From Raja brachyura (Eukaryota): 64,000 nucleotides of DNA. The stretch's first letter is position 1; the number at the start of each line of letters is the position of its first letter. The DNA is taken from contig OY740809.1 of the NCBI GenBank assembly GCA_963514005.1, positions 20,398,001 through 20,462,000 on the forward strand, in the 5' to 3' direction. The translations under genes and the position numbers were made by a program. The notes below the pieces were generated by a model. It saw only the letters and a program-made list of their open reading frames with translations, was not told the DNA's origin and did no database searches. Of this stretch, positions 18,193 to 49,946 are shown one piece after another.

Positions 18193-21100
18193 TTATGAAA
18201 CACCTTCCATTTTCACTGTCCAGCCATTTTTTGAGGGAGCAGTATATGGAGAAAGAGGGGACAGGGAGATGAGAAGGCCTTTGGTGGGAGAAGTCGTCCA
18301 TTTCAAAGGTTTTGGGATTCCCAACATTGTCACCTGGAGAGATAGCACAAGAGCATGAAACAAGAACAATTCATAGGATGCATCTCAGTCCAGTGACAAC
18401 TGTTTTCCTCTTGACCACATTATCCTACAGAGTGGTGAACACAGCCAAGTCCATCATAGGTCTATCACTTCCTTCCACCCAGCCCATCTTCATGGTACAT
18501 TAGTATTAGGAAGTTGGAAGTGAAGGATGCCTGTTACTCTGGCAATTCCCTTTACTCTACCTTCTTGGAGATGACTTAGGAGCTCAAAAGCCTGCAGTAC
18601 AGCCTCTTCTCCCTAACATACTCAAGAATTAATCAACTCCTTCCAAAAGGTGCTGTCATGTACCTTTACTCATAACTTTGCCTTATTCCATTAACGCACT
18701 TTTGTAATTTTTGCACTACTTCAGATCGCACTATAATCTGCAATCACCATGTCTACTTTTTACTCTAGGATTTGTGCAAACTAGGAATTCTATCACACCC
18801 TGGTGCATATTACAAATTAATCCAAATCTGAAGCATGGCTGCAGAATTGAAATGTAGAAATATGTAGGTTTTTCCATGCTTCCGGGAGATTCAAGAACGG
18901 TGCCACTAAATCAGAAAAGGTGACAGAGGAAAGACCTGGAACCTGACACAAGACGCTCTTGCATGGACCTGCGTCTGGCATGACAAACATCGCAAACATC
19001 AACATGATAGAATGAAGCTTGATGTACTGCATGGTATGACTTCAGTTGCAATAAATGTTAACTCTTGTTATCAATCTAGACTTGGGGAACAAGTAGTATT
19101 TGTGAGATGATTTATTGCAAGATCCTTTTGTCAAACAGCCTTGGAATAAATTGCCAAACATTATTTTAAAAGAAGTTGACGAAAAACTAAATGGGGAGAA
19201 TGCTATTTAATTAATATATAGGTCAGAAGGAAATGACAATAGGCCAGGTTTACTGAGGGTCTAATTTGCACTTTATGACCATAACAATTTAAGTATAAAT
19301 TATGTTATATTCCAGGACAAGCCAAGCTTGCAGCCTGAATAAAGTAGATTACTCCTGGGGTATTGAAATATCTAGAATAAATAAAAGATGAAGCTAGAAA
19401 TTTCAGAAAATGACGAAGGAGTAAAGAATATCTAACCGATGTCTACAAACGATTGTGAGCAGCAAGCGATGATTCTAGAGGATATTGGATTGCCCACAAT
19501 TGCATGAGGTAGCCTGTAGGTCATTTCTGAGAGTACTATAAGTGGCAGAATGACTATCGATTTATGCTTTTGTTACCAGTGAATGGGCAGAGAAGTCCAA
19601 GTAGAGAAAGCATGAGGGAGCTCTTAGACTAGAATATCCTTAAACATAGGAGGATATATTATAATTTCCTTAAGCAAAATAAATTGTTTTCTGATACTTA
19701 ACAAATATGAAACTTCTAAAAGACATCCTAGACAGACTATTGGAGACAAAAAATATGGAGACTCAGAATGACAAAGAACATGGCTGAAGAATAAAAATAT
19801 TGTAAGTGACAAAGAAGATAAACACGTAGCAAATGTTGGATAATTTAATAAAAAGGAACAGGAGGGGTTAAAGGAGGAAAATTAAGTATACATTTGTGTT
19901 ATGTTCAATCTTAGGACAACAATTACCAAACTTAAATAATGTCTGTACAATTAGCAAGCATGAAAACCAGGGCAAAAGCAAACAGATTTGATGATGACTG
20001 TCAATTGGAACAGACTGAAATCATTGGAGACAATTCTGAAACGTTGGGTAAAGAACAAGAAGTTGGTTGGGAATGAAATAAGTTTTATATACTTACAGTG
20101 GTGTTTGGAAAGGTCTTTGGCGATTCCAGTTGTAGGATGTTGTCAATGGGCCACTTTGTAAATATTCCATAAACTGAGGATCCTTTACTGGTGTACCTGG
20201 AAGGAAGAAAAGAGCAGAATGCAAACGTGAGCAGTGAATTAAAACACTGCTTGCCATAGAAGGCTGTGGAGGCCAAGTCAATGGATATTTTTTTATAGCA
20301 GAGATAGATAGATTCTTGTTTAGTACGGGTGTCAGACGTTATGGGGTGAAGGCAGAAGAATGAGGTTAGGAGGGAGAGATAGATCACCCATGATTGACTG
20401 GCGGAGTAGACTTCTGTGAAACACGAGTGAAGCATAAACAGCAAGCTCACAGCATGAGAATAGATCTACAGCTATTGTGAAGTGCCCTCTTGCAGTCTGA
20501 CCCAAGTAGGGTATAAATGCTGCCATGATCTGGTTCAAGGGGCTGATCCATTTCATTCTCCTGTATTTCAAGCAATTCTACACTTCTCCAATTATTCAGT
20601 CCTCATTAAATTTATAGATCACAGAGAGAACGGGCAAACTCCACTCAAGACAGCACCCGAGGTCACGATCAATTCCAGATCCCTGGAGCTGAGGAAGCAG
20701 TACTATTCATTGCACCATCTTGCCTCCCATCTTTAAACATGAAGTGACTGAATATAGGAATGAAGAATGGTGCAAAGTGAAAATAAATAGTTGCTACATT
20801 TAAACCTGATGGATATTACCATATTATATTTGTAGTGTTCTCTTTCTGAACTCTCCATGGTGTTGATGCATATATTGCTTCACCATTAACACGCAACCAC
20901 TGTCCCAGGCCACGCAACCTTTCCTCAAAAATAGGAGCGATGATGCCGTCTTTCGTTGGACCGATGTTGAGCAGGAAGTTGCCACCATAAGCGATAGTAT
21001 CCAGTAAATTCTGCCAGAAAGAGAGAGATTTTGCAATGATCTCCAATACCACAGTTCCAATTCTAATTCCAGGCCTCGTAACAACAATGGACCATTATAT

Positions 21101-24100
21101 TTTTGCACAATGTTGTAACACCATCCCAGAGAACCTACTGGATTACTACTGTGTACATCATCCCAGTTTGGTAAATAAATTATAGTATTTGCATATGATT
21201 AACAAGCTTTAAGCATCCACACCATTACATAAAAATACTTTGTAAAAAATGTCCAATGATTCCATATATCTGCTTGAAAGGCATTGATTCAATGCAAACC
21301 AACCCACTAAAATGTACGGAATGGCTTTTCACTGTTACAGCTGGACTGAACACATTTTACAGTGTCCTAGTTGAATACTAATATTTCTGGCTATTTATTG
21401 GCAGGCTTAACAGTTGAACACAGCACCCCTGCACTGGGATCAGAAACATCCTGCTCAGTGGCACATGGGTCAATTGTCATGTCCACTACTGATTGAGACA
21501 CAAGTTGGAAACTATCTGATCGCTGTGGCTCAGTTTCCATTTGGTTGCTAAGAAAGTTATCCCAGGAGGCCAATACACTTTCGCCTGGACTCATTTTCAT
21601 TCCAGTGATGTACCATATTGATTAACCTGGAGTACATACAGTGAGAAGGGATGGCAGATCCATCAGGTCGCTCATCATCATATTTCTGCGATATCCCCAT
21701 GACCTTTTGTCGACTGAGGTGCACATCTCCCATTTATGGTTCTGTAGTGCATGGGGACTGTATTTGTCTCTGCAGTCATAGAAGCCACCATGTTTACAAG
21801 CACAGCCAACTCCCCAGCGGTCATTAGTTACCACAGTATCCTAGTGACAGAAATGATATATTTTTAAACTTGTATTTAAATAGCAATTTTACAAACCACA
21901 CCATGTTACCAAACAATTTACAGCACCGTTGTGGATAATGTAAGAAACATGCTAGCAGGTCAACACAAAGCTAGGTCTCAAAACAACAAGAAAATTACTG
22001 ATATTCAGTCAAGGATTATTGTGGACAGGGCATAACAGGAAACACAATTTTATTACCGGATACAATATGCAGGGGACTGGAATTATTTCAACACATTTGT
22101 CCACATACCATAAAATGTGGTGGAAAGCATCCACACGATGAAATTTAATTTAGTGGAAAAGAAAGAACAAAAAATAGTGCAACTTTGTCAAGGATACCTG
22201 GGAGGTCAATAAAATTAATTCTGCAAGAAATGAACCTGCATAAAATGAAAAGATCCAACATGAAAACAATCAAGCTAACCAACCCAGAGTACTTAGACAA
22301 TCAGATTAGTGTGGGTGTAGAAGTAATGAGATTTGATGTGAGAAGTGTGAACAAAAGTAGATAAGTTATTTTAAGAAGGCAATTCCATCAATTATATATC
22401 GGTGAGCCCAAGCATAGGCTTGACGATCGCTTCGCTGAACACCTCCGCTCGGTTCACAATAACCAACCTGATCTCCCGGTGGCCCAGCACTTCAACTCCC
22501 TCTCCCATTCTGAATCCAACCTTTCTGTCCTCGGCCTCCTCCATGGCCAGAGTGAAGACCACCGTAAATTGGAGGAGCAGTGTCTCATATTTCGCTTGGG
22601 CAGTTTGCACCCCAGCAGTATGAACATTGACTTCTCTAAGTTCAGGTAGCCCTTACTTTCTCCTCCCCTTCTCAGCTCCCCCTCAGCCCTCTGGCTCCAC
22701 CTCTTCCTTTCTTCCTCCCCCCCCCCCCACCCCCCCCCCCCCCCCCCCCCCCCCCACCAACCCTCACATCAGTCTGAAGAAGGGTTTCGACCCGAAACGT
22801 TGCCTATTTCCTTCGCTCCATAGATGCTGCCTCACCCGTTGAGTTTCTCCAGCATTTTTGTCTACCTTCCATCAATTTAAAACTAACTTTTAAAAACTCA
22901 AACAATATAAAATTGGTAAACACAACAACCAACTGCTTCAACACATAAGATGCTGCGCACATTTTGAGTTGGTGTTTGTAAATTACCCAACATGTTTAAA
23001 TAAGGTGAAGTTGTAGCTCTGTCAAGCAGCTTGACATGATCTACAGACTCTCCCACAACTAAAAACCACGGCTACGTTGATCAAAATGTGGGGGAAAAGC
23101 ACGGCTACTCAATTGTATGATAGGGGAATTGTTGAAACAATTCAGTTCATTGTAAAGCCAACAGCTTTAATTGAATAGCTGAAGCAGTCTGAAGAATGGT
23201 CTCGACCCAACCACTCTTTCCCTCCAGAGATTCTGCCTGTCCCACTGAGTTGTGCCAACATTGTATGTCTATCTTCGGTGTAAACCAACATCTGCAGTTC
23301 CTTCCCACACAGCTTTAAATTCTTGTTAAGCGCAGAACTAAAAAACTAGGTAAACGAGCCTAATCCCAAATTGGCCAATAAAGAAATTAAAAATCAGAAA
23401 ACTGATCATTGTTAAATTATAATCATCGATACAGATCGTGAATATTGTTAATATATACCTTGACAGGACTGTCATTGTAAAGCCAGGCGAGAAATCCAGT
23501 GGAATTCCAGTAAGTATCTGATCCCTCCCAGTCCCCATCTGACCAGATTATATCAGGTTTATATCTATCAGAACACAAAACAAAATTCCTATAATTTCTA
23601 AACATTCTTGATGCAAAAACCTGATTATATTTATCAAGTAATGCCATTGTCTTCTTTAAAAATGCCTTAAATTTAACATAGAAACATAGAAAATAGGTGC
23701 AGGAGGAGGCCATTCGGCCCTTTGAGCCAGCATCGCCATTCAATGTGATCATGGCTGATCACATTAGTTCTTTTTAAATTCAACACTATGGAATTACATC
23801 ATCTCAATTAGTTTGATTTGAAAATTATAAACACAAGATTATTTTAGTAATAGTAATAGGATTACCAATATTATGAGGTTTAAAATATAAGCAGCAGATG
23901 AATTATGTAACTGAAATTATTTTGTCAGATTACGTTGTTGTTATATCATATGGGGGAAATAAAAAAGAATTTGAAGAGCTTTCACCCATTCATGTTACAC
24001 CAGAGTATATATTTAAAGTGGAACAATATGAGTCATTTAGCTGCCTTATTGAAATATTCCTGCTAATTTTAGCTATTTATTTTTCCTGAGAGATTCTCAA

Positions 24101-27100
24101 TACTCACCTTGTCTCTGCCCTGCCCTCAACCTCACAGAATAATCCCTGAGGAGCCCCACAAATGCTGCCTGATCTACTGCACATTTCTATCATTTATTTT
24201 ATATTTCCAGCATCTGCAGTTTTATTTTGATTTTCAAAACACTCAGATCACAGGCGCAAAGTTAAAGCACCACCTACTGGTCTCTGTGTTAAAAGGCATA
24301 AAACAAGAGACACTGCTCACATCCAAGGGTTACACAAAAAGCTGGAGAAACTCAGCGGGTGCAGCAGCATCTAAGGGGCGAAGGAGATAGGCGACGTTTC
24401 GGGTCGAGACCCTTCTTCAGACTGGTCAGGGATCAGGGAAACGAGAGATATAAACAGTGATGTGGAGAGATAAAGAACAATGAATGAAAGATATGCAAAA
24501 AAGTAGTTGGTTTGTAGTGGATGTCAGTCAGGAGTGTATCACCTGCAATAGAGATGGTGAGGTCAAGGAATGGTAGGGAAATGTCGGAAATGGTCCAAGT
24601 ATATTTGAGTGCCGGATGGAAGTTGGTGGTGAAATGGATGAAGTCAGTCAGTTGTGCGTGGGTGCAGGAGGTGACACCAAAGCAGTCGTCAATGTAACGG
24701 AGGTAAAGGTCGGGGGTGGGGCCCTGGTACGCCGAGAACAAAGATTGTTCGACGTGCCCGATAAAGAGGCAGGCGTAGCTAGGGCCCATGCGTGTGCCCA
24801 TAGCTACGCCTTGTGTTTGGAGGAAATGGGATGAGTCAAAAGAGAAGTTGTTGAGGGTAAGGACCAACTCCGCTAGGCGGAGGAGGGTGTCAGTGGATGG
24901 GTATGGGTTGCTCCTCTGGTCGAGGAAGTACCGGAGGGCTTTGAGACCATCCTGGTGGGGGATGCAGGTGTATAGTGACTGGACGTCCATGGTGAAGATG
25001 AGAGGATGGGGGCCTGGACAACGGAATGTGCGGAGCCGACGGAGAGTGTCTGAGGTGTCTTGAACATAGGTGGGGAGGGATTTAACAAGGGGGATAGGAT
25101 GGAGTCAAGGTATGTGGAAATGTGTTCGGTGGGACACGAACAGGCAGAGACAATGGGTCTGCCGGGGCAGTCGTCAAATGTACACATCAAATGTGTTTAT
25201 TAGTGATGAGAACATTTACAACGAAAGATTGCAAAACTATCATATGGCATTACCTCGTGACCAGTTCGTACAGTTCTGGTAAAGTTTTTTCCACAACAAA
25301 TTTCTGGGTCTTGAATTTGTTTAGCTTGTCATACAAGAAGAGAGGGTTAAACCACTCAATGAGAGAATGGTACACTCCATAATATAACTTCCTATTGCAA
25401 AAGAATAACAATTTTGAAATATTAAATTCAGTTGGGATTTCAGCTTCTTTTACATAACCGTTATGCAAGGTTAAAAATGGCCCAGAAAAAAAACAGATTA
25501 GCTACAATAACAAAAGTTGTATTGGTTAAAATCATCACAGGATTACATTTGGTATTCCTTTGACAAAAGAAGGGTGCATCAACTGGAGAGACAATTTGCG
25601 GAACAAAGCATTTGAGAATACACGAGTTTAGAGAACTGTGCCTCAAATTGTCTACCTAGGATTGAACTGAGACATGTCAAAATAGAGACATTGTGCGGAT
25701 ATATATCAAGACAAATATCAAATGTTACTGCAAGATCATCAAATCAGTGAAGGAATGCATTTTAGTTTGTTTGAAACTTATTACGCTTCCTGTACAAAGA
25801 GTTCATTGTAAGTTGATGTTACTGACTAGCCATTCCAGGCTGCAGGAGTGCACCTTTTGCATGCTGAAGAATGCAAAGGCTTTGTCAGAAAGGAACACTG
25901 CCTCCACCAGATACTGAAGGGTTGGGTCCTGCATAACAGCCCCTCAAACACTTGAACAGTATTATTCAGGAAGACCTCATGAGTGGCAATGGTATTTGTA
26001 CATAGAATATAAAGAAAGGCATATACTGTTTATGCTGCATTTCCAGTTTATAATTTTAGGAATAACGAATAATTTTGAGGGAAAAATGAAGTGGACAGGC
26101 CACTTTAAAAAATGCTTGAAGGCCAGCTCATTACCCACAGCAATACAATATAAAAGATAAAATTAAGGCTTAGTCTTTGAGAATAGAAACCTCAGCTACT
26201 CTCAGCATTTTTTGCTTTCAGACACACTTTAGACCTTAATTAGTACAATGAATCTGCTCTATGAACATCAAGAACGGCAAACAACAACCTTCTTGACATC
26301 TTTGTCTATGTTTCCTATTATACCTTTATATCCAGATGAAAACTTCCCAGTTTACTTCAGTCGTATCGCAAAAATACAGCAAGGTCTCAACAAAATGACA
26401 GGTGAAAGTGAATAAAAATAGAGCAGCGACATAAACTTTAATATTTCTGGAAATGCAATAAATAAAGTGGCTGCCAACATCTCATTCAGAGACTGTGACC
26501 CCTGGTTCTTGAAACCCTGAACGAATCGTGAATGTTTCAATGTAATAATTAATCATTTTTCTGAACTCTAATAAGCATTCTGCTTAATCCCTCTTCATAA
26601 GATACTCCTTCCCAGAAATGTTGTTCCATCCATCCATCCTCGGCTCTGGAGAACAGATTTGCACCCAATAATCCAGGTGAATGCACCTGTAATTTCATGA
26701 AGACATCTTTACCGTTGTGTTCAAAACCTCTGTAATAAAGAACAGCAAGGGTGCAGCCTGCAGAGCTGCTGCATCACAGCACCAGGGACTCAATCCAGAT
26801 CTCGGGTACTGCTAACTATGCAATTACTGGAAGGATAGGCATCAACAACAGACAGGTTTCAATGGGCCAAACACCAAGCGAACAACCTGTGTATAAATGA
26901 AGTAATATGCTGTCTTTGGAAATTCTATTGCACCTGGGACAAGGAGGCATCCCAGATAAAGATCTGCACACTCGTGCCATCAAAACATAATCATGGTCAT
27001 ATCTACTGGGTTATCAATCATTATTGCATTAAAATGTAATGTGGATAGATTGGAGAAGCTGGAAATCTCTTCTTGAAAAAGAAGAGGTTGTGATTGAATC

Positions 27101-30100
27101 GAAAGGATGAATTTTAAAATGATGAAAGATGTTTATTTTAGTTTAGTTTTATATTATTGTCACGTTTACCAAGATAGTTTTGATGCGTGCTATCCAGTCA
27201 AAGACAAGATTTTACATGATTATAATCAACCCCTCCACAGCATTCAAATACAGGGTAAAGTTCAATTAAAGATAGTTCTAAGTTCTCCAATGAGATAGAT
27301 GGGAGGTCAAGACAGAGAAAACAGATTCTGTTCAATTATTATGGGCTTCATTTGTCTGTATAGACCAGGGCAATTATAAATACAGTGAACCTTCCACAAA
27401 TACATAATATTAAATACAGACCGTTTACGAACAGCAGCTGCCAGATCACCCACTAGATCTCGATGTGGTCCTGTGTCAATGGAGTTCCAGTTCCAGGACA
27501 CTGGTGATCCCCAGTTTGTGAACCCTTCATGGTGTTTTGATGTCAGCACCACATATCTGAAAATATAAACCACAGGAAAACAATTAGTCATTAACAACCA
27601 AGGCCAATAGTAAAGTAACTCTTAGATATATCTGCATGCCAGCTTTATTTTGGCTAAAATACAGACCAATGCTTGCAGTTTGAGTTGTGTGCTTGACATT
27701 TTAAAGAGTTCATAAACTAGAGGGAAATGTGTGAACATTTTTTGTGCTTTTAATTTAGATGTACTGTAAAGGTTACCTATTTACAAGTTTTCAGGGTGAC
27801 ACAAGTAGCATAAAGTAATACGTTCTGCAACACATTTGCCACAGGCATGCGATTAACAAAAATAATGCATTTTTGGAGGTTACTAATCGAAATTCACAAA
27901 ATTGGGCGAAATGCGTGAGTCTCACGCTCAATGCGGGAGAGTTGGCAGCTCTGCTCATAGATGCATTCACCAGGAAAAGCCAGTCATCACATCCTAAGCA
28001 TTGCAATCCTAATTATCTTGAATCCATTGATAATTATCTGTGTAGTGAATGCCATAAATGTTTCAATACATTAATTAAATGTAACTTTTATCCATACAAT
28101 AGCTTTATTGTTTAGTTTAGTAGCACAGCACGGAAACGGGCCCTTCAGCCCACCGAGTCTGCGGTGACCAGCAATCAACCGTACACTACCTGTATCCTAC
28201 ACTCTAAGGAGAGTTTACAGAACCCAATTAACCAACAAACCAGCACGTCTTTAGAATGTGGGATGAGCACCCATAGAAAATCCACTCAGTCACCGGGAGA
28301 AAGTACAAACTCTGTACAGACAGCACCCATAGTCAGGATCGAGCCCAGGACTCTGTAGCTTTAAAGCAGCAGCTCTACCAATGCACCACTGTGTCACCTC
28401 ATTAATACATCAATGGAACAGACTTCTTTTATAAACAATATATAAAATGCAAAACTAAGCTAATGAAATCTCTGGGTTCAGATGCAATACTACATAACCG
28501 CAGAATTCTTCTGGAAACAGTTCCCCATTTTCCTTCACACATCCAGATTAATAAATATTAGTTACTAGTGAAACTAGATTATAAATTTATTCCTTCCAAA
28601 CACAGTTCCAAATAAACCACATAAAACCACACTCAAAGTTTAGTAGTCATGTGTTCAGTGTTATTCGCAGCTCAGACTGAGAGTCGTGGCCTCTCCCTCC
28701 CCCATCTTGCAGCAAGAGGTCACGCCCACACTTCCGGGTTTTATAGTCCCTCCCCTCACACCAGAAGGGGCGTGGTTTTATGGCAAGATTGACAGGAGAG
28801 AGAATCTCAACATTTTTTAAACATTAATAACTCTTTTACTTTTTAAGAGGGCGTTAGATGTGGCACTTGTGGCTAAAGGGATCAGGGGGTATGGAGAGAA
28901 GGCAGGTACGGGATACTGAGTTGGATGATCAGCCATGATCACATTGAATGGCAGTGCAGGCTCGAAGGGCTGAATGGCCTACTCCTGCACCTATTTTTCT
29001 ATGTTTCTATGTTTCTACTTTTCATCTATGGGAAACATTCTCTGCACCTGATGAGCAGAGTAAGATGGCCAAAAATCACAGCCATAAGTGGTAGCATTTT
29101 TTCTAAAATCAACGTACAGTGCAAACAGGAAGTAGTCAAGTTTAGACTTTTAATTATATAGATTATGAAATTGTACACTAAGGTGCTGTGGTTTATACAC
29201 CGTCTTAATCTCTCCTGCTCTCGTCTGACTGTCAGTATCTCCGCTGGCTTCCAACCTTTACCGTAGCTGCTAATTACCATTAAACTGCATTATGTGATAG
29301 GACACAATGCCCTTGGATACAGCGGCTGATTGGACGGCAGGAGAAAGAAGGGTTTCGGCCCGAAACGTTGCCTATTTCCTTCGCTCCAGAGATGCTGTTG
29401 CACCCGCTGAGTTTCTCCAGCACTTTTGTCTACCTTTGATCTTCCAGCATCTGCAGATCCTTCTCAAACATGACCAACGTGTTGATTGGACTGAAATTTT
29501 AAGGACAGCTGGTCCGTGATTGATCACAATGCTCCTCAGAGACCCCCGAATGGCCAGCGCATTATGTGATTTGACACAATGCCCTTGGAGACAGCAGCTG
29601 ATTGGACGGGAGGAGACCGATTTGTTGATTGGATGGGAATTTTAAGGGAAACTGGTCGGTGATTGGACGCAATCCCCTTTGAGACAGCGGTTGATTGGCC
29701 GCCAAATAATCAGGCACGAAAAATTGTCAACTCGGAAAACAAACAACAAAAATCGGAATTCCGATTTAAATCTGATATAAGGTACATAGGGTGGGTATCG
29801 ATTAATTCTAGACAACAGGTGAAACAAAAAATAATCTAACCCCATTAATTCACTCAAGGTGTATTATGATGTGTTCCACAGTATGAAGTGTACAGCAAAA
29901 CTTGCACTTCCACAGTGGTCTATCGTGTTGTTTCTTCAACGGACCACGGATTTATTTTCAGAGCAAAACATAAAGTGCTCGAGAACTCAGCACTGGATCT
30001 ATGGAGGGTCCGAAGAACGGTCTCGACCCAAAATGTGACCTATTCCTTCTCTCCAGAGATGCTGCCTGACCCACTGAGTTACTCCAGCATTTTGTGTCTA

Positions 30101-32411: not shown

Positions 32412-32460
32412 CCTTTGTACATAGAACAGGAAATGATCGCTCCTGTTACGTCACTTCAAC
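32412..32460 (-). promoter_or_regulatory. FUCA1-A proximal promoter/5' UTR with CRE-like and ETS-like motifs
   Basis: TTACGTCA and CAGGAAAT lie just upstream of the ATG; near-identical in copy B at 49947-49995. Confidence 0.4.
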
Positions 32461-32474
32461 CATAGACTTTCAAC

Positions 32475-32502
32475 CAAAGATCCTATTGCTATAGGATCTT
32501 TG
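32475..32502. mobile_element. 28-bp palindromic micro-MITE with 8-bp TSD (hAT-like)
   Basis: CAAAGATCCTAT-TGCT-ATAGGATCTTTG flanked by CTTTCAAC at 32467-32474 and 32503-32510. Confidence 0.7.
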
Positions 32503-33495: not shown

Positions 33496-34386
33496 GGGAG
33501 GTTTCAGGGCAGGTGGGTCACGACCTATGACCCGTACTGTTGCTGCCTTATGCCAAGTGGAGTACACGCGGTGAACTGCAGGTAAGCACTTACCATTGTT
33601 TCCAGTGTAGCGGGCCCGTTAAAAAACGCCGAAATTGTCCATTTTTGCGCTGTAAATAATTATGGAAATCGGGATAAGCGTGAGAGACATTTAGTCTACA
33701 TCAGAATTCCAAAAGTGAGGAGAAATTACAGTAGAAAGAAGCGAAAGCTGAAGGGACAACAACAGTCGGAGTGCATGGCGAACATTGGCCGTTTGCTCAC
33801 TGCATTTCATCAACTAAGGCATTATTTTAGTTTTTTTTCTTGAGTCCTTTGGCATCTAAAAAGTTTCAGAACTGGTAAATCTGGCTGTAATTTTTTTTAA
33901 TCGCCCATGGTTCTCAAGCGTTTACATACAAAAAGAAAACGCCTCTGAAGCAACATTTACAGCCAGATTTATCACTTCTGAGACTTTTTAGAAACCAAAT
34001 CAAGAAAAAACACAAATAATGCCTTACTGTTGATGAAATGCAGTGAGCAAACGCGATAATTCCAATATTTTCAATTCCGATATCTGCACGGCCAATGTTC
34101 GCCAAGCACTTTAGCTGTTGTTGTCCCTTCAGCTCTCGCTTCTCTTTATCTTCATTTCGCTTCACTTTTGGAATTCTGACGTTGGGTACATGTCTCTCAC
34201 GCTTACCCCGACTTCCACAATTTTTTACAGCGCAAAAATCCAACTTTTTGGCGGTTTTTAACAGGTTGGAAAGTACGCGATTCTTGTATTAATAACATAT
34301 ACCGGAAGTTATGGATGTCCTCCAGATGGATTGAGTGGCTCCGTGCGTCAAGCCCTATGACCCAGTGACCTTGCGTGCAAACCCCC
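33496..34386. mobile_element. Foldback non-autonomous DNA transposon whose two arms carry THAP-domain remnants; interrupts a minus-strand CR1 fragment (~33150-34860)
   Basis: Ends are TATA-GGGAGGTTTC ... AAACCCCC-TATA. ORF 33914-34243 (FCAVKNC...RIPKV...LANIGRAD...HCISS) resembles a THAP finger, and an inverted degenerate copy lies at ~33620-33900. Confidence 0.65.
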
Positions 34387-36868: not shown

Positions 36869-38032
36869 TTAGACTAGTTCATCTTTGTCAGCCAGGATTT
36901 CTCGTACGGCATGAACTTGGCAGCTTTCTGGATCTTCTCCCCCTGAACTCAGGAACTCCGTCTCGCCATCAGGCTCTCTAGAAATCCAGCCAGACTCTTT
37001 GTCACCTTCCTGAAATTCTGTATCATGGTCTGCATGTGAATCTAAGTCGATAAGCTCATCAAAATTTGTTGGGTCTATGCAGTTAATGCACAGACCTAAA
37101 GATTTGACCCAATCTTGTGCAGTTTTGGTTGCAATGCCAGTGAATGGCTTCTCGCAAACTTTGCAAGTAATGATGTCTCTAGATCTATGGACCTGGGAAA
37201 AGTTCAAACAATGCGATGACATGAATGAAATGAGAAGGAAACACTAAATATTATTAGGAACAAATAGAACTCATTGCTCTTGATGATCAGAGCAATAGAC
37301 ACATTATAAATGTTGAGGAGAACAAAATGATGAATTTAAGAAAAAGTGAAAGCAAAATCCTGTTGCAATGCTGGCAAAAAAGTACCAACTAACAACATCA
37401 AGACTAAGTACCTCAAGTTCATTTGCACCTCTACTAAATCATAAAGATTCACTTTTTACAATATAAAGAGACACAACTATGATACTAAGGCAAGATGCTC
37501 AGAGATTCAGGCAAAATAGATATTAAAGTTTTAGATCATAAATGGTCTGTGATTTAATTGATGTTTAATGTTAAGCAAAACTACTTGTAGACATATTAAG
37601 GGGAAAGGTGAATATCATAAAGGAAACCACCAAAACAGATCATGAGGCAGAAAAAGAGTTCCACATTCACATTTGATGATATCCAAGAGATAATGCCAGT
37701 ATGAACCAGCTGATATTTCTGCCACCTCCCCATTATTATTTACATTATTGTCCAACAGGTGTTTTATCTCGCTTCAGAAAATCTAGCACAAGCAGGATAT
37801 CGAGTTCCTGTCGCCTGCAAAAAAAAAATCAACTTCAGTAATCAGCACGACCTACACTCAGGTGGTGGTTGCGGAGATGCTCAAGTCGTGTGAATCGCTT
37901 GTCACAGGAATTGCAATAATATGGTCTCTCTCCTGTATGTGATCGTAGATGTCGCTTCGTCAGATTGCCTCTTCACAGTATGTGTACAGAAAGGGCACTT
38001 GAATCTCACCTTTCGTAATACATTACAGTCTC
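36869..38032 (-). pseudogene. ZBTB8A: Truncated ZBTB8A duplicate: last two coding exons only, frameshifted, BTB exon deleted
   Basis: Exon copies at 38032-37856 (177 bp vs 179; GCTTC--GTCAG vs GCTTCAAGTCAG, a 2-bp deletion in finger 1) and 37192-36869 (324 bp, open). Upstream, homology jumps from ~54125 to ~57700 of the intact gene. Confidence 0.88.
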
Positions 38033-40599
38033 CTTAGAAATAAATTCAGACTTAGTGTGATCTTTAACCAAATTGAGAATATCCGTAGCTGTAAATCTGC
38101 AATATGACCACAGTAAATAATGCAAATAGAAACATGAGTCATAACAATAGAACATTACTGAGATTTAACACGGTTGAAAATCGACAGAGGCTGAAATGTC
38201 TGACACTGGATGTTATATTATCTTACTTATAGTATGTATCACGCTATTATTTTCCTTCTGTATATCTGACATTTTCTTCAACCTAAATATGCAAATTTTG
38301 AGCAATATTTGCATTTCCAGCTCTTATTTCTCTTCACCAGGTTTTTTGCTTACTTGGATAACCCCTGCAAAATGCCTTAGAATGTTTACTGTGCCCATAC
38401 AATTGGAAGCAGTTGCAGCAGTCTTCAGAAATTTATGCAATGGACAACAGTGACGTCCAAACAAATGACGATTCCAACCAGCTCTTGATTCGTGCTGGAA
38501 AATATGTGAATAGTGCTTCTCTGAATACGAGCAGAAATGACCCTTGATCTTACTCATTAAGAGCAGTCCAATTGAGGGCATTAAAGTAATGAAATTGGAG
38601 GTAGAATTGGTAGGCAAGTTTACTCTTTATAAATAAATATGCAAAGGTTTTCCCTACACGCAGACACCAATTGCAATGCGCATATGCGACCAGAGGGGAG
38701 GATGTGCAGAGCTGTGTTTGACCTGCGGGTACTAATTAGCTAGGTTTAACTTTTTATGTGCGAGCAGATTCTATTTGGACAGTTTTTCATGTTAGGTACA
38801 TGCCAGCATTGTAACTATGCTAGATGCAGAGTACAGGCCTTCAGTCCTACAGCTGGGTTATTGTCTGGCCAATAGATTTAGCCGTTTCCAGTTCTCTCAT
38901 GGGGCTAAAAGGAAGTACCTGACCTAAACAATCCAAAACAAAATCTCAACTCATGCATACTCTCTGATTGGGGCATTATGCCTCTCTAAATTTATCTTCT
39001 GGTGCTTGGATGTATCTTAGCCACAATATCACAAACATTATTTTCAATCTTTGGTCTGAGTTATCCAGTATTACGCATCGGGTGGCCAATTTCACTTGAC
39101 TCTGACAATTCCATTAGCTTAAAAATAGTTATAGCTGGTCAACAAGTGGGTTTAAGTGAGGGTGTGAGAGTTCAAGATATGCACGTAACTGTTAAGAGTG
39201 AAGGGTATGGCTGGCAGGAGTAAGATGGTATAGGTATAGGCAGCTGGGATCAAGAGTTCCCTTGGAGGAGTTTAGGGGATTGAATAATTTGCTTGGGAAG
39301 GAAACCAGGAAGACAAAAGGGGGGCAGGAGATAGCTGGCAGATAAGATTAAGGAGTGTCCAAAGAGATTTTATATTAAGTGAAAGGTGTGACAAAGTGGT
39401 CGGCCACGTGTGAAATCGCAAGAGGTGGGCAAAGTCCTGGGCATCGTAATAGCAACCTGAGAGGACAGCTTCTTCACACAAAGCATTTGGAATGTGCTAC
39501 CTGACTGAGGTAACAATACATTTAAAGTCATTTGGAGAGGTACACGGATAAGAACGTTTCAGATGCATTTGGGCCAAGATGCTCTATTACTCCAGGACTC
39601 TATGTGTTTGTTTGAAGCAGCTAGAATGTAATGAACAAAACATTATTGCTTACTCTTTATTAAGGATCACATTAACAGAGTTTCTGAACAAGGTGAATAT
39701 AACAGCAAATAACAAATTACAGGACAACTGTTTATTTACTGTGACCACATCAAATAAAGTCAAACTGCAGTATTTACACAAATCAGCAAATGATGTAGAA
39801 AGCCCCATTAAAAAGAAAGGCATTGAAATAGTTACACATCTTCCTTATTTCCAAAGCAAATCTGTAACATATAAGTGAAGTTGGCAGAGAGAGCCACCTT
39901 CAATGAGTGCCATCAGTGTTCTTGGAAACGACATATACCCTGAAACACCATGTCCATATTGCAGGTGTGATTCTCTGGCCCGAGTGTAATTTTGGAAAAC
40001 AGCAATTGAAGGATTAATTAAAAAATCCTAAAAAAATCATGTACGTTTTTAATAATCTTCTGTTCAGTAAAAATATTTGATCCGATTATTGTAGTAGTTT
40101 GTACATCAAGTTTATTTTCAATAAAATTGTAAATAACCAGTAATAACTACTGGTATTACTTTGATTTCTGGCAATGTTTAACAGCGTTAACAATGTGGAT
40201 TTTATTGATCCAAAGCAACCTTTATAAAACTGTTTAAAACTCAAGTTCGATCATGGATCTTTCCCAGGTAGCAATTTTTTTTTTAATTCGCAAGTCATGT
40301 GAAGCAATACAAAATTATGAAAGTATAAAAGTCACAGCATAGCTCATTCAACCTCAACATATGGAGTTTATGGTCAAAGATTTGTACTTTGGATAGCTTT
40401 TTTTCACCTTACATTGAACTGAGTTGTCAGGTAATGTGCTTTGATTTATAAAATTATGTAATCTCCATTTTATCACATTTCATTCAATGGATAATTTTCA
40501 TGTGAAAAATAATAATAGTTTAATCATGTTCTTTAATCACTTTCAGAATTATAAAATACATTCCTTTGTCATTCTCAGTAGAACTACATTTTTTGCTGA

Positions 40600-43500
40600 T
40601 TATGAAACGCCTTCCATTTTCACTGTCCAGCCATTTTTTGAGGGAGCAGTAAATGTAGAAAGAGGGGACAGGGAGATGAGAAGGCCTTTGGTGGGAGATG
40701 TCGTCCATTTCAAAGGTTTTGGGATTCCCAACATTGTCACCTGGAGAGATAGCACAAGAGCATGAAACGAGAACAATTCATAGGATGCATCTCAGTCTGG
40801 TGACAACTGTTTTCCTCTTGACCACATTATCCTACAGAGTGGTGAACACAGCCAAGTCCATCATAGGTCTATCACTTCCTTCCACCCAGCCCATCTTCAT
40901 GGTACATTAGTATTAGGAAGTTGGAAGTGAAGGATGCCTGTTACTCTGGCCATTCCCTTTACTCTACCTTCTTGGAGATGACTTAGGAGCTCAAAAGCCT
41001 GAAGTACAGCTTCTTCTCCCTAACATACTCGAGAATTATTCAACTCCTTCCAATAGGTGCTGTCATGTACCTTTACTCATAACTTTGCCTTATTCCATTA
41101 ACGCACTTTTGTAATTTTTGCAATACTTCAAATCACACTACAATCTGCACCATTCTGCTGTTTTGCATTTTTTTGTATTTATCATCACCATGTCTACTGT
41201 TTACCATAATCGTCATGCAAACTAGAGAATTCTATTACACCCTGGTGCATATTACAAATTAATCCAAATCTGAAGCCTGGTGCAGAATTGAAATGTAGAA
41301 ATATGTAGGTTTTTCCATGCGTCTGGGAGATTCAAGAACGGTGCCACTAAATCAGAAAAGGTGACCGAGGAAAGACCTAGAACCTGACACAAGACGCTCT
41401 TGCATGGACTTGCGTCTGGCATGACAAACATCGCAAACATCAACATGATAGAATGAAGCTTGATGTACTGCATGGTATGACTTCAGTTGCAATAAATGTT
41501 AACTCTTGTTATCAATCTAGACTTGGGGAACAAGTAGTATTTGTGAGATGATTTATTGCAAGATCCTTTTGTCAAACAGCCTTGGAATAAATTGCCAAAC
41601 ATTATTTTAAAAGAAGTTGACGAAAAACTAAATGGGGAGAATGCTATTTAATTAATATATAGGTCAGAAGGAAATGACAATAGGCCAGGTTTACTGAGGG
41701 TCTAATTTGCACTTTATGACCATAACAATTTAAGTATAAATTAAGTATAGTTATGGAAGGATAAAGATGAGTGAGAAACGAACTGTCAAGAGAGCAATAT
41801 TAAAAAGACAAATTGATGAGGAAAAAGCTGAAAAAATATTGAGATGAAGGAAGTGGAAAGTTAATTGGGGATTTTTAGAGTTTTTTTGGTTGTGTTATAT
41901 TCCAGGACAAGCCAAGCATGCAACCTGAATAAAGTAGATTACTCCTGGGGTATTGAAATATCTAGAATAAATAAAAGATGAAGCTCGAAATTTCAGAAAA
42001 TGACGAAGGAGTAAAGAATATCAAACTGTTGACTAAAAAACCATTGTCAGCAGCAAGCGATGATTCTAGAGGATATTTGTTTGCCCAGAATAGCATGAGG
42101 TAGCCTGTAGGTAATTTCTGAGAATACTACATGGCAGAATGACTATCGATTTATGCTTTTGTTACCAGTGAATGGGCAGAGAAGTCCAAGTAGAAAAAGC
42201 ATGAGGGAGCTCTTAGACTAGAATATCCTTAAACATAGATGGATATATTATCATTTCCGTAAGCAAAATAAATTGTTTTCTGATACTTAACAAATATGGA
42301 ACTTCTAAAAGATATCCCAGACAGAATATTGGAGAAAAAAAAAATAAGAAGACTCAGAATGACAAGGAATATGGCTGATGAATAAAAATATTGTAGCAAA
42401 TGTTGGATAATTTAATAAAAAGGAACAGGAGGGGTTAAAGGAGGAAAATTAAGTATACATTTGTGTTATGTTCAATCTTAGGACAACAATTACCAAACTT
42501 ATATAATGTATGTACAATTAGCAACCATGAAAACCAGGGCAAAAGCAAACAGATTTGATGATGATTGTCATTTGGAACAGACTGAAATCATTGGAGTCAA
42601 CTATGAAAGGTTGGCTATAGATCAAGAAGTTGGTTGGGAATGAAATAAGTTTTATATACTTACAGTGGTGTTTGGTAAGGTCTTTGGCGATTCCAGTTGT
42701 AGGATGTTGTCAATGGGCCACTTTGTAAATATTCCATAAACTGAGGATCCTTTACTGGTGTACCTGGAAGGAAGAAAAGAGTAGAATGTAAAGGTGAGCA
42801 GTGAATTAAGACACTGCTTGCCACAGAAGGCTGTGGAGGCCAAGTCAATGGAAATTTTTAAGGCAGACATAGATAGATTCTTGTTTAGTACGGGTGTCAG
42901 CGGTTATGGAGTGAAGGCAGGAGAATGGAGTTAGGAGGGAGAGATAGATCACCCATGAACTCTTGTACATCATTCGGCTTGTACTCGCTAGAATTTAGAA
43001 GATTGAGGGGGGATCTTATAGAAACTTACAAAATTCTTAAGGGGTTGGATGCAGGAAGATTGTTCCCGATGTTCTTAAGGTCCAGAATAAGGGGTCACAG
43101 TTTAAGGATAAGGGGAAATTCCTTTAGGACCGAGATGAGGAAAACATTTTTCACATAAAGAGTGGTGAGTCTCTGGAATTCTCTGCCACAGAAGGTAGTT
43201 CAGGCCAGTTCATTGGCTATATTTAAGAGGGAGCTAGGTGTGGCCCTTGTGGCTAAAGGGATCAGGGGGTATGGAGAGAAGGTAGGTACAGGATACCGAG
43301 TTGAAATGATTAGTCATGATCATATTGAAGCCCCCTAACATCAGGTTAATTTATATTTAAGGTTTGAAAATTGGTGATTAACTGATGCGCTCCAGTAAAA
43401 TGGAAGTAGATTCAACTTTCACCTCAGGAAGTAATTCAGGAGTCTTCCAAGTTTTTAATCCTATAGACTTGAAGCTGAATCTATTTTTAAAAATCCCCAA

Positions 43501-46500
43501 AAGTAAATGAGTAGAAGTTTGCACAGTTTCCTGTGACCTCATGGGTTTCCTCCCACATCCCAAAGACATGAGGGTTTGTACGTTAATTTGTGTCTATACA
43601 TTGCCCCAGTGATAGGGAATGGGTGCAAAAGTGGAAAAACAAATTAGCGTGAACAGGTGATCGATGGTTAATATGGACTCAGTTGGAGCCTGTTTCTATG
43701 CTGTATCTTTCAATCAATCAACTCCCCTTTAATCATTTTGCCATTTACCTGAACTATGGGGTAATTTACAGTGACCAATTAATCTACCAGTATCTCTTTG
43801 GGACAAGGGAGGAAAGAAAATGGTCACAGAGTGAACATGCAAACTCCACTCAAGACAGCACCCGAGGTCACGATCAATTCCAGATCCCTGGAGCTGAGGA
43901 AGCAGTACTATTCATTGCACCATCTTGCCTCCCATCTTTAAACATGAAGTGACTGAATATAGGAATGAAGAATGGTGCAAAGTGAAAATAAATAGTTGCT
44001 ACATTTAAACCCGATGGATATTACCATATTATATTTGTAGAGTTCTCTTTCTGAACTCTCCATGGTGTTGATGCATATATTGCTTCACCATTAACACGCA
44101 ACCACTGTCCCAGGCCACGCAACCTTTCCTCAAAAATAGGAGGTATGGTGCCGTCTTTCGTTGGACCGATGTTGAGCAGGAAGTTGCCACCATAAGCGAT
44201 AGTATCCAGTAAATTCTGCCAGAAAGAGAGAGATTTTGCAATGATATCCAATACCACAGTTCCGATTCTAATTCCAGGCCTCATAACAACAATGGACCAT
44301 TATATTTTTGCACAATTTCTCAAGACCATCCCAGAGATCCTACTGGATTGCTACTGTGCATATCACCCTAGTTTGCTAAATAAATTGTAGTATTTGCACA
44401 TGATTAACTAGCTTTAAGCATCCACCATCATCACATAAAAATACTTTGTAAAACATTTTCAATTATTTAAAAATTCCTTGCATTAATCTAACTCAAAGCA
44501 CCATCACTTAATGGCAAGTCCTGCGGAAACTGCAACTTCATTTTCTCCATAAATATCTGCTTGAAAGACATTGATTCAATGCAAACCAACTCACTTAAAT
44601 GTACGGAATGGCTTCTCACTGTTACAGCTGGACTGAAAACATTTTACAGTGTCCTGATTGAATACTAATATTTCTGGTTATTTATTAGTAGGCTTAACAG
44701 TTGAACACAGCATCCCTGTACTGGTTTCAGAAACATCCTGCTCAAAGTTAGTGGCACATGGGTCAAATGTTATGTCCACGACTGGTTGAGACACAAGTAG
44801 GAAACGATCTGACCTCTGTTTTCATTTGTTTGCTGAGAAAGTTATCCCAATGCACTTTTGCCTGGACTCATTTTCATTCCAGTGATGTACCATATTGATT
44901 AACCTGGAGTACATACAGTGAGAAGGGATGGCAGATCCATCACGTCGCTCATCATCATATTTCTGCGATATCCCCATGACCTTTTGTCGACTGAGGTGCA
45001 CATCTCCCATTTATGGTTCTGTAGTTTACTGGGACTGTATTTGTCTTGGCAGTTGTAGAAGCCACCATGTTTACAAGCGCAGCCAACTCCCCAGCGGTCA
45101 TTAGTTACCACAGTATCCTAGTGACAGAAATTATATATTTTTTAGACTTGTATTTAGATAGCAGTTTTACAACCACACCATGTTACCAAACACTTTACAG
45201 CATAAAGTGATAGGGCATAACAGGAAACACAATTTTATTACCAGCAGAATCAATATGCAGGGGACTGGAATTATTTCAATACATTTGTCTACATACCATA
45301 AAATGGGGTGGAAAGTGTCTACACGATGAAACTAAATTTAGTGGAAAAGAAAGAACAAAAAATAGTGCAACTTTGTCAAAGATACCTGGGAGGTCAATAA
45401 AATTAATTCTGCAAGAAATGAACAGAGCATAAATTGAAAAGATCCAATATGAAAACAATGAAGCTAGCCAACCCAGAGCACTTAGACAATCAAACTAGTG
45501 TGGGTATCGAAGTACTTCGATTTGATGTGAAAAGTGTGAACAAAAGTAGATAAGTTATTTTAAGAAGGTGATTCCATCAATTTAAAACAAACTTTTTAAA
45601 ACTCAAACAATATAAAGTTGGTAAACACAACACCCAACTGCTTCATCACATAAGATGCTGCCCACATTTTGAGTTGGTGATTGTAAATGACCCAACGTGT
45701 TTAAATAAGGTGAAGTTGCAGCTCTGTCATGAAGCTTGACGTGATCTACAGACTTTCCCACAATTAAAACCATTACTACGTTGATCAAAATGTGGGGGGG
45801 AAACACGGCTAATCAATTGTATGATAGGGGAATTTTTCAAACAATTCAGTTCATTGTAAAGCCAACAGCTTTAAATGAATAACTGGAGCAGTCTGAAGAA
45901 GGGTCTCGACCAACCATTCTTTCCCTCCAGAGATGCTGTTCCACTAAGTTGCTCCAACATTTTATGTCTATCTTCGGCATAAACCAGCATCTGCAGTTCC
46001 TTCCCACACAGCTTTAAATGATATTTTGTTAATACAGAAGTAAGAAAAAAAAAAACAGGTAAATGAGCCTAATCCCAAATAGGCCAATAAATAAATTAAA
46101 AATGAAAAAACTGATCATTGTTAAATTATAATCACCGATATGGATTGCGAATATTGTTTATATATACCTTGACAGGACTATCATTGTAAAGCCAGGCGAG
46201 AAATCCAGTGGAATTCCAGTAAGTATCCGGTGCCTCCCAGTCCCCATCTGACCAGATTATATCAGGTTTATATCTATCAGAACACAAAACAAAATTCCTA
46301 TAATTTCTAGACATTCATGCGGCAAAAACCTGATTCTATTTACCAAGGAATGACATTGTCTTCTTTAAAGATATCTTAAAATTAACATTGGTTCTTTTGG
46401 AATTCAACTAGGGAATTACGTCATCTCAATTAGTTTGAATGCAGTAATAGTACTAGGATTACCAATATTACGAGGCTTAAAATATAAGCAGCAAATTAAT

Positions 46501-49500
46501 GATGTAACTGAAATTATTTTGTCTGATTACATTGTTGTTAAATCATATGGGGGAAATAAAAGATAATTTGATGCTTTCACCCATTCATGCTACACCAGAG
46601 TATATTTTTAAAGTGAAACAATGTGACAGCCGTTTAGCTGCCTTGAAGTGAAAAATTCCCGCTAATTTTAGCAATTTTTTCCATCCTGAGGAGTTTTATT
46701 TTGATTTTCAAAAGACTCAGATCCCAGGTGCAAAGTTAAAGCACCATCTACTGGTCTCTCTGATAAAGGCATAATACAAGAGACACTGCACACATCAAAT
46801 GTGTTTGTTAGTGATGAGAACATTTACAACAAAAGATTGCAAAACTATCATATGGCATTACCTTGTGACCAGATCGTAGAGTTCTGGTAAAGTTTTTTCC
46901 ACAACAAATTTCTGGGTCTTGAATTTGTTTAGCTTGTCATACAAGTAGAGAGGGTTAAACCACTCAAAGAGAGAATGGTACACTCCATAATATAACTTCC
47001 TATTACAAAAGAACAACAATTTTGCAATATTAAACTCGGAATGTCAGTTTATTTTACATAACAGTTGTGCATGGTTAAAAATAGCCCATGTATTGTTGCA
47101 TGCTATCCAGTCAAAGACAAGATTTTACATGATTATAATCAACCCATCCACAGCATTCAAATACAGGGTAAAGTTCAATTAAAGATAGTTCTAAGGTCTC
47201 CAATGAGATAGATGGGAGTTCAGGACTGCACTCTAGCAGGTGAGAATTGATAGAAATAAATAATTCTCATTGGCAGAAGGATCAGGAAATGGGGAGGCAA
47301 TAATAAAGGCTATTGGCAAACCAACCAAACAGGCGAGTGATTAGGATCTGGAATACGCTGCCGAAGGTAGCAGTGGAAACAGATTCTGTATAATTATTAT
47401 GGACTTCATTTGTCTGTATAGACCAGGGCAATTATAAATACAGTGAATCTTCCCCAAATACATAATATTAATACAGACCGTTTACGAACAGCAGCTGCCA
47501 GATCACCCACTAGATCTCGATGTGGTCCTGTGTCAATGGAGTTCCAGTTCCAGGACACTGGTGATCCCCAGTTTGTGAACCCTTCATGGTGTTTTGTTGT
47601 CAGCACCACATATCTGAAAATATAAACCACAGGAAAACAATTAGTCAATAACAACCAAGGCCAAAAGGCAAGTAACTCTTAGATATATCTGCAAGCCATC
47701 TTTATTTTAAAACACAGACCAATGCTTGTAGTTCGAGCTTGGCATTTTAAAGCGTCTATAAATTAGAGTGAAACGTGTGAACATTAAGTGTGCTTTTAAT
47801 TTAGATGTACTGTGAAGGTTACCTATTCACAAGTTTTCAGGGTTACACACCGAGTTTGCGGTGACCGGCAATCAACCGTACACTAGTTGTATCCTACACA
47901 CTAAGTAGAACTTACAGAACCCAATTAACCAACAAACCTGCACGTCTTTGGAATATATAATGAGCACCCTTAGAAAATCCACTCAGTCACAGGGAGAAAT
48001 TACAAACTCCATACAGACAGCACCCATACTCAGGATCGAGCCCAGGACCCTGGCGCTTTAAAGCAGTAGCTCTACCAATGCACCGTCTCATAGCTATGCC
48101 ACAATGCTACCCATATTCATTGGGATGAGCCATCATAAGTGCTTGAACATTGATAAGAGATCTCTGAAATTTGTCTTTCCAGAGGAAACTGAACGAACAG
48201 TGCGTTTCAGCTATTCTCTTTGTGTTTCAGATTTCTAATTCTGATTAGGGCACAACTTCCAATAATGTACTGAAGAAATAATTCATGCTCATTCGCTTTT
48301 ATTTTAACAATGGAGCCAAAGCCACTGAAAGTTAGTTAAAACACCACGCTTGACACATATTGAATGGGGACACCACCCTGTGCACTCTACACTGAAAAAG
48401 GGTTCCGACCTGAAACAATGCATATCCATTTGCTCCACAGATGCTACCTGACCCACTGAGTTCCTCCAGCACTTTGTGTTTTGCTCAAGATTCCAGCAGC
48501 TGCACTTCCTCGTGTCACACTTGCACTACCTCAGCCATTCAACCCCATTGCCCCTTTTTCTCGTTCTCAGAAGAATAGGTGTTGAGATAAATTATCGGCA
48601 ATGCCAGGTTCAACACGTGTTCTGACAGAAAGGAGACAAAGTGCTAGAGTAAGGTACGCGGGTCAGGCAGCATTGTTGGAAAACATGGATAGTGACGTTT
48701 CGGGGTAAGACGCTTCTTCAGACTGTTGGAGGATGGGGGTGGGGAGAAAAAAAGCGAGAAGATGGGAGAGGCAGGACAAAGCAGAGCAGGTAAAAGATAG
48801 ACAAGCAAGGAGTGGAGTGTGATAGATGGTTGCAACAGAGGTCAGATATAAGAGCTGGAAATTGCAAAGCTAGTGGGAGGAAAGTCACAAGAGGGGTGGG
48901 AGAAATAGGTGGGAGGTAGATGGGGCACATGGGGGAAGAGAGGGGGAGGGAGGTTTTGTGGGGAACCCCATCATGGATAGCACTCTAAACAAAGTTTTTC
49001 ACTGTATCCTTGGACACGTGACAATACCAAAACTAAACAGGGAAAGGTGCAGGAAGGAACTGCAGATGCTAGTTTACACCCAACATAGACACAAAATGCT
49101 GGAGTAACTTAGCGGGACAGCAGCATCTCTGGATAAGTCTGCTTTGGTTCAACTCATCCTGCACCACTGCCCTGGCCGGTTTCAGTTCTGCTCGTTTAAG
49201 ATCTTTGGTTTGAGCAGCTGATGCTGGCGGTTGTCATGTGACCGGTCACATGAACGAGAGCTCACGTGAAGCTCGGGCTAATTATTCAAACTCAGCAATA
49301 CTGTAAATGTAACATTGGCGACATTGCCTAGACCGGACAAAACACGTCTCTAGTCAAAAATAGATAAGAAAAGCTAGAATAACTCTGCGGGGCAGGCAGC
49401 ATCTCTGCAGAGAAGGATTAAATGGGGGACGTTTCGAGTCGAGACCCTTCTTCAGACTGACATCTCTAGTCACCCATCTTTTTATCAATAAAGACATTTC

Positions 49501-49946
49501 TACACCAAATCTATCCTTTCTCGACACTGAAAATCGGTGGCTGCTGACATTTGCTCGGCTTTGGCTGCGCTTTTCACGAACCTAGCTCCGGATTCCTCGA
49601 ACAGTTCCGCCCATTGATCCGGGTTGAAGAAGGTGGCGGTGAATTCTGGAGCGAACTCGCTGTATTCGAACCCCGGTGGGTAGTTCTGTGCCATAAACGC
49701 CACATAGCTAAATTCCCTCCTTCCCTGCCAGTTCCACCAGAACCACTCGCTGCCGAAGCTGGGCACGGAAAACACTCCCCAGTGGATGAAAATCCCAAAC
49801 TTGCTCTCATCGTACCAGCTGGGTAAAGGCCTGCTGTCAAGACTCTTCCAGTTCGGTTGGTAAGGGCCATCGCAGAAAGCCCTGGAGCATAAATACCCGG
49901 TAAGGCAAATAAAACTCAAGAGACTCTTGCACCCCATGATCTGCAT
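40600..49946 (-). CDS. FUCA1: Tissue alpha-L-fucosidase (GH29), copy B, 8 exons, ~458 aa, intact
   Basis: Exons: 49946-49582, 47613-47479, 46999-46862, 46273-46168, 45117-44917, 44215-44025, 42763-42664, 40740-40600. Same lengths and phases as copy A, GT-AG sites, catalytic motifs intact; about 27 aa differences from copy A by manual count. Confidence 0.95.
49233..49269. promoter_or_regulatory. Cluster of three CLEAR/M-box motifs in FUCA1-B intron 1
   Basis: GTCATGTGAC (49233-49242), GTCACATGA (49245-49253) and TCACGTGA (49262-49269); 49234-49253 is a perfect 20-bp palindrome. Confidence 0.5.

Follow-up and report, generated by a model that had tools for sequence, protein, structure and literature searches.

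FUCA1 is a single-copy gene in human. Teleost fuca1 occurs as tandem duplicates too, as reflected in the record names 'alpha-L-fucosidase 1, tandem duplicate 1/2' in Danio and Pangasianodon, and the passages of PMC3728101 that deal with copepod GOT1 paralogues describe divergence islands that persist against gene conversion. Here we describe two FUCA1 genes, copy A and copy B, in the skate Raja brachyura, found in a 64,000-nucleotide stretch of DNA (the window; GenBank assembly GCA_963514005.1, contig OY740809.1, positions 20,398,001 to 20,462,000 of the forward strand). The pair arose by genuine duplication in a rajid skate and does not represent two haplotypes, and both copies are transcribed; copy B is conventional, copy A derived and faster. 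Our favored explanation, which we hold as probable without regarding it as secure, is that copy A was functionally retuned via second-shell changes and copy B keeps the housekeeping lysosomal job, while selection holds the differences between them against conversion. The skate pair is an undescribed case of a known process, tandem fuca1 duplicates and divergence islands being already known. No paper on FUCA1 duplication in skates or sharks was found among the matches listed in the open-licence literature, and PMC12427801 gave no match for paralog, duplicat or evolution.

Both window copies are colinear with human FUCA1 (GH29A; PDB 7PLS/7PM4) and about 66% identical to it. They lie head to tail on the minus strand in two duplicated units seen by self-BLAST, unit A (14004–38468, about 24.5 kb, its introns enlarged by several kb of insertions) and unit B (38471–54130, about 15.7 kb). 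Each copy has eight exons, of equal sizes in the two (356, 135, 138, 106, 201, 191, 100, and 141 nt), at 32402–32047, 27556–27422, 25391–25254, 23564–23459, 21840–21640, 21010–20820, 20196–20097, and 18333–18193 in copy A (18193–32402) and at 49937–49582, 47613–47479, 46999–46862, 46273–46168, 45117–44917, 44215–44025, 42763–42664, and 40740–40600 in copy B (40600–49937). All seven introns in either copy are bounded by GT..AG. The open frame is 1368 nt in each, giving 455 residues from the ATG at 32402 (A) or 49937 (B), or 458 if the in-frame upstream ATG at 32411 or 49946 is used, so that two intact copies with good frames and splice sites, as the original prediction had it, are borne out. 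A Pfam scan of Amblyraja A- and B-type proteins (P0125 and P0126, 96–97% identical to the window proteins) found the Alpha_L_fucos (PF01120) and Fucosidase_C (PF16757) domains. The nearest matches, named tissue alpha-L-fucosidase-like and from skates, point to FUCA1 rather than FUCA2 orthology: copy A is 96% identical to A-type orthologues in Amblyraja radiata, and copy B is 97% identical to B-type proteins of Amblyraja and Leucoraja and 92.5% to that of Rhinoraja. Searching the genome returned only the two FUCA1 genes and one differently spliced homologue of 56–65% identity on contig C8 (G000:C8:87543634-87560167, plus strand), which has another exon layout and is most likely FUCA2.

The window proteins are 94% identical to each other, with 27 of 455 residues differing (26 of these in the mature protein) against 10 silent codons, for 42 nucleotide differences altogether. 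The differences cluster in codons 69–84 of exon 1 (32151–32198 in copy A, 49686–49733 in copy B, both minus strand), where 10 nucleotide changes are all non-synonymous; the remainder of the exon has three, in codons 5, 6, and 88. These counts agree with those made earlier by eye, and the motifs quoted with them are all present. Within codons 69–76 the local non-synonymous rate (pN) is 0.46, compared with 0.07–0.10 under neutrality. In scan simulations of full neutrality, with every non-stop change allowed at 7% or 10% divergence, seven of eight residues differing gave corrected P values of 0.001 and 0.019, respectively, eight non-synonymous nucleotides in eight codons 0.007 and 0.07, and ten in 16 codons 0.035 and 0.27. 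We also compared the differences with parsimony counts of orthologue changes in 15 elasmobranch sequences, a single copy being taken for each species. Loop 69–76 holds 7 of the 26 mature-protein differences but only 17 of 311 orthologue changes (5.5%, P=0.0004), and the acid/base loop 264–282 holds 4 of 26 and 10 of 311 (P=0.009), while the enrichment in residues 220–227 was not significant against the same counts (P=0.09). Eight of the 26 differences fall at sites invariant among the 15 other elasmobranch sequences. A single complex mutation behind the exon-1 cluster was rejected, as other skates show intermediate states, stepwise among genera. A third-copy donor for the loop was likewise rejected, as the genome holds only the two FUCA1 genes and the C8 locus, whose DNA match covers the conserved stretch before the loop and not the loop itself.

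The differing sites surround the catalytic apparatus and leave it intact. The part of PMC11796335 that holds Table 10 lists 12 first-shell fucose-binding residues; with human numbering equal to window numbering plus six (by alignment, 12 of 12 listed residues matching), all 12 are present in both copies and none differs. The Asp nucleophile D219 (human D225), the Asp acid/base D270 (human D276), and the equivalent of human Glu289 are also common to human FUCA1 and both copies. The claim that the differing motifs line the substrate pocket was therefore an overstatement; by sequence position, the copy differences are second-shell. Thirteen sites (69, 73–76, 84, 125, 175, 182, 206, 224, 267, and 276) split A from B in both Raja and Amblyraja, all 13 in the catalytic domain and none in the C-terminal domain (P=0.007 against the 68% share of orthologue changes). 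Six of the 13 shared sites lie within six residues of a first-shell residue (rate-weighted P=0.006–0.011), as do 10 of the 26 mature-protein differences, and proximity to the first shell weighted by orthologue rates gave P=0.0006–0.011 overall. Enrichment near the active-site motifs, as originally proposed, thus stands against orthologue rates, while against a uniform distribution it is borderline (10 of 26, P=0.09). The accompanying proposal of diversifying selection is partly supported: the acceleration is asymmetric, in copy A, rather than symmetric, and the gene-wide dN/dS (the ratio of non-synonymous to synonymous rates) is below 1.

We single out four patches of copy A, all on the minus strand. 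The first, codons 69–84, forms a helix-loop-helix right after E64/W65 in a predicted model of an Amblyraja A-type protein (mean predicted local distance difference test score 90.6; template-modeling score 0.92 and root-mean-square deviation 1.2 A to 7PLS); by its position in the sequence it would lie at the pocket rim. The second holds I175 and F182 (F and Y in copy B), downstream of Y171 (human Y177), at 25337–25360. The third runs from nucleophile D219 to G224/S225 (A/P in copy B) at 23519–23539, so that copy A has Gly-Ser at human 230–231. The fourth, at 21748–21777, is the acid/base loop with D267, R269, D270, H275 (human Q281), and A276. Position 267 corresponds to human Asn273, which, in the portion of PMC9548408 that treats it, is hydrogen-bonded to Glu289 and stabilizes the loop bearing the acid/base Asp276. 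Copy B keeps N at 267 and copy A has D (N267D). All 59 bony-vertebrate FUCA1-like proteins compared have N here, as do all non-A elasmobranch sequences aligned; 40 of 116 non-skate homologues, most of them FUCA2 or invertebrate enzymes, have T instead. Functional effects of residues around the active site have precedents in related enzymes: second-shell residues beside the acid/base alter hydrolysis and transfer rates in bacterial and fungal GH29A enzymes (PMC7711723), and regioselectivity was shifted by exchanging Leu and Phe close to the acceptor site (PMC11796335). The positions in these examples differ from those changed in skate copy A.

The same two types occur in Amblyraja radiata, which has at least one B-type and at least four A-type models, two of the latter being isoforms of one gene. 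Counted as genes, models XP_032901207-210 and XP_032869619 represent at least three A-type genes and one B-type, with one A-type gene on another scaffold, possibly representing additional expansion or else a haplotig left unplaced. An approximately unbiased (AU) test on 15 proteins favored duplication before the split of the window species and Amblyraja (p-AU 0.994 vs 0.003 and 0.011), with the signal wholly in residues 24–280; residues 281–455 cannot separate the trees. The stem branch of A is 0.037, compared with about 0 for B. Relative-rate tests of the window pair were significant with six of nine outgroups (15:5 with Pristis, P=0.04), and the Amblyraja pair tested with Rhinoraja gave 17:2 (P=0.0007). 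Taking polarity from outgroup columns and branch lengths, copy B is the conventional copy and copy A the derived one. Among individual records, P0130 (a Logan record) combines A-type residues 69–75 with B-type sequence in the remainder, a chimera produced either by gene conversion or by assembly. The Pristis (P0015) and Narcine (P0017) proteins have Ala, not Asp, at 221, two residues past the nucleophile, a site mutated in engineered Thermotoga transfucosidases (G226).

Transcripts of both types were recovered from public sequencing runs. The exact intron-skipping joint of exons 5 and 6 was present in four of four runs in contig alignments to these exons, and an RNA origin of the runs is indicated by this joint and by exon-to-intron depth. 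B-type contigs occurred in all four runs and A-type contigs in two, X8 and X10, which come from two different organisms. A- and B-type exon-5 contigs had depths of 517 and 244 in X8 and 284 and 334 in X10, compared with about 9 in introns in each, contig depth being a poor measure of expression; the A-type contig of X8 extends into exon 4. Runs X5 and X20 had only B-type contigs, at low depths (20 and 8.5), which does not speak for a lack of A. The possibility that one copy is untranscribed, raised with the original prediction, is thereby answered by the A- and B-type contigs of X8 and X10.

Outside the divergent patches, the two units appear to have been homogenized. Identical non-coding runs between them reach 333, 179, 173, and 151 bp, while the permuted maximum averages 91 bp and none of 2000 permutations reaches 333 bp; the longest run, in intron 7 (18970–19302), is likely a gene-conversion tract. 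Silent sites are under-diverged (11.5 vs 20.6–22 expected, P about 0.015–0.03), and the exon-1 loop has an identical stretch on either side, of 188 and 103 bp. Site 163 has the same state in both window copies and a second one in Leucoraja and every Amblyraja copy. We infer from these patterns that the identical tracts probably reflect gene conversion, though some could be slow-evolving conserved non-coding elements. A reading of conversion from single exon-6 contigs in X8 and X10 was discarded, as assembly drops variant bubbles and the allele kept is that of the deeper copy in each run. Skate FUCA1 and copepod GOT1, as far as the latter is described in the relevant part of PMC3728101, are both mosaics of identical tracts and divergent patches. 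Unlike in the GOT1 case, the skate islands adjoin known catalytic residues of a lysosomal glycosidase.

These results are consistent with a scenario in which a head-to-tail duplication in the ancestor of rajid skates would have produced two transcribed FUCA1 genes. Copy B would have stayed conventional, and copy A would have kept the 12 fucose-contacting residues while gaining second-shell changes, selection maintaining the catalytic-domain differences as conversion wiped out the rest. With N267D, a carboxylate would come to lie three residues from the acid/base Asp, which it might retune, and the substitutions after W65, Y171, and D219 may reshape the pocket entrance. Copy A likely has an altered aglycone or linkage preference or an altered pH profile, as predicted from the positions of its changes.

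Possible, although we doubt it, is a history of relaxed constraint and dosage retention, in which copy A is an equivalent or slightly impaired extra enzyme with tolerated changes in a variable loop, its N-terminal half having diverged by chance via uneven conversion. A number of observations count against functional retuning, and several of them suit this history well. The gene-wide dN/dS (NG86: dN 0.029, dS 0.038, ratio 0.77, or 0.91 with transition weighting) is not above 1 or different from it, and the pairwise ratio is probably inflated because silent differences were lost, probably through gene conversion. The 10:0 non-synonymous split is not significant by itself (P=0.098 under neutrality), and two independent 24-nt non-coding windows in the 11.4-kb alignment likewise hold eight mismatches, clusters as dense as that of the loop. 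Positions 73–76 and 83 are among the most variable in 116 homologues (entropy 2.2–3.5 bits vs a mean of 1.24), and the differing sites average 2.13 bits. Many A states (H69, P76, K84, S125, L175, F182, and E206) are common in other fucosidases, D267 also occurs outside skate A, in two gastropod enzymes only, and position 275 corresponds to human Gln281, a solvent-facing polymorphic site in the portion of PMC9548408 that covers it. Proximity within six residues is not significant against uniform placement (P=0.08–0.09), and the loop windows and proximity cut-offs were picked after data inspection. With Rhinoraja (17:7, P=0.064), Narcine (13:5), or Latimeria (7:6) as outgroup, the relative-rate test fell short of significance. 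Among the matches listed (15 of 19 cluster members), Leucoraja and Rhinoraja have only the B-type; therefore copy A may be dispensable, and the three or more A-type models of Amblyraja fit dosage or birth-and-death turnover. Positive selection on copy A is thus only suggested, given the inherent variability of the loop, the two equally dense non-coding windows, and the many A states found in other fucosidases. Against relaxed constraint, however, the loop is denser than the fully neutral scan expectation (P=0.001–0.07), its states are stepwise among genera and so not the product of one complex mutation, and it sits between long identical runs. Relaxation should moreover hit the C-terminal domain as well, where none of the 13 shared differences falls. 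We rank retuning of copy A over relaxed constraint.

Quite improbable, in our view, is a role of the divergence in stability, oligomer assembly, or tissue partition (for instance, mixed A/B tetramers avoided or favored, or a secreted rather than lysosomal role) and not in substrate choice. The human tetramer, in the part of PMC9548408 that describes it, assembles through loop 441–451 and through a contact of the catalytic domain near Asn236. Of the window positions, 438/439 belong to the tetramer loop and 224/225 lie near N230. The 438/439 differences, however, do not recur across genera, both copies retain all four N-glycan sequons, and the isoelectric point is little changed (6.8 vs 7.2). 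Insertions upstream of the two promoters differ between the units, but the proximal upstream sequence differs at only about 2% of sites, and the copies appear together in X8 and X10.

The structure of the duplication leaves little room for an assembly artefact. The units join at 38468/38471, and no long repeat or flank similarity was found at this junction, so a repeat-mediated crossover there was rejected. Their non-coding alignment differs at 764 of 11401 sites (6.7%; 10.2% in top-quartile bins) and is broken by 99 gap runs; corresponding introns of the two copies differ in length by as much as 2.5 kb. Unit A also carries, at 36869–38035 (minus strand), an orphaned duplicate of the final two exons of the BTB-zinc-finger gene that lies upstream of copy B. 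This orphan has decayed, with a 2-nt deletion, a damaged donor, and 9 non-synonymous vs 2 silent codons in its last exon, and it provides an internal neutral control. The intact gene (52507–55289, minus strand; BTB domain found by domain scan) is presumably ZBTB8-like. FUCA1-A has no indels in 1368 nt where about 12 would be expected from flanking DNA, while the co-duplicated ZBTB exons decayed, so copy A is not decaying. That the copies are two uncollapsed haplotypes of one gene, a concern attached to the original prediction and seemingly favored by their 97% identical exons, is effectively refuted by the non-coding divergence and kilobase insertions, by both types being present in Amblyraja and in the runs of two other organisms, and by the junction, which has the form of a clean partial duplication and includes the decayed ZBTB orphan.

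While the process itself is textbook and a new function of copy A is only predicted, the locus is a clean vertebrate example of divergence islands opposed by gene conversion, with a built-in neutral control in the decayed ZBTB fragment. In the structure paper on human FUCA1, only the fucose (−1) site is seen, with an inhibitor, and aglycone preference and pH determinants are left open. A natural pair that is 94% identical, with the same first shell and with differences at about 13 sites that hold across genera, constitutes a ready-made swap set, in which N267D would be the most informative single change.

Similar pairs occur in other fishes. In the sharks Carcharodon, Cetorhinus, Mustelus, Scyliorhinus, and Heptranchias, as in skate, there are several FUCA1 RefSeq models per scaffold. 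Within-species shark pairs differ at 175/176, and those of lamniforms also at 69, 125, 226, and 256–259; two lamniform pairs have 10 of 17 and 11 of 25 differences within six residues of a first-shell residue, while the Scyliorhinus pair lacks such enrichment (3 of 15). In the tree, shark copies group by lineage. Across the shark proteins (P0021, P0026, and P0144-P0161), one class carries F175L and E176D, with lamniform copies also having D226G and changes at 256–259. Two cyprinid paralogue pairs have 6 of 29 and 7 of 29 differences in residues 69–84, compared with 3 of 18 and 2 of 22 in cross-species pairs of the same type, while a Labeo pair, unlike the skate, has 0 of 28 in this loop. D267 and G224, the states of skate copy A, appear in none of the 59 bony-vertebrate proteins aligned, and the teleost tandem duplication was probably separate from that of skates. 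We think it unlikely, if less so than a role in assembly, that FUCA1 was tandemly duplicated repeatedly in cartilaginous and cyprinid fishes with one copy retuned each time at the same second-shell positions (69–84, 125, 172–176, 224–226, and the acid/base loop) and the rest homogenized by conversion. Convergence is only a lead because site 176 alone fully separates the derived class across all sharks. If true, fishes would have convergently evolved a second fucosidase that acts on a new glycan or at a new pH, and the residues that set specificity in animal fucosidases would thereby be mapped.

The window also contains mobile-element remains, at 989–2224, 4412–7412, and 24436–25104 (all minus strand) and 33615–34265, among them a reverse-transcriptase frame (PF00078). 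Intron 3 of copy A harbors a Penelope-like reverse-transcriptase fragment with a weak PF00078 match, and upstream of this copy is an imperfect inverted repeat of 650 bp. Another set of frames is one that we take to be DIRS-like by resemblance; two of its frames were scanned and gave no Pfam match. GC-rich stretches at 57800–58400 and 59300–59900 lie upstream of the BTB gene and are possibly its promoter or first exon.

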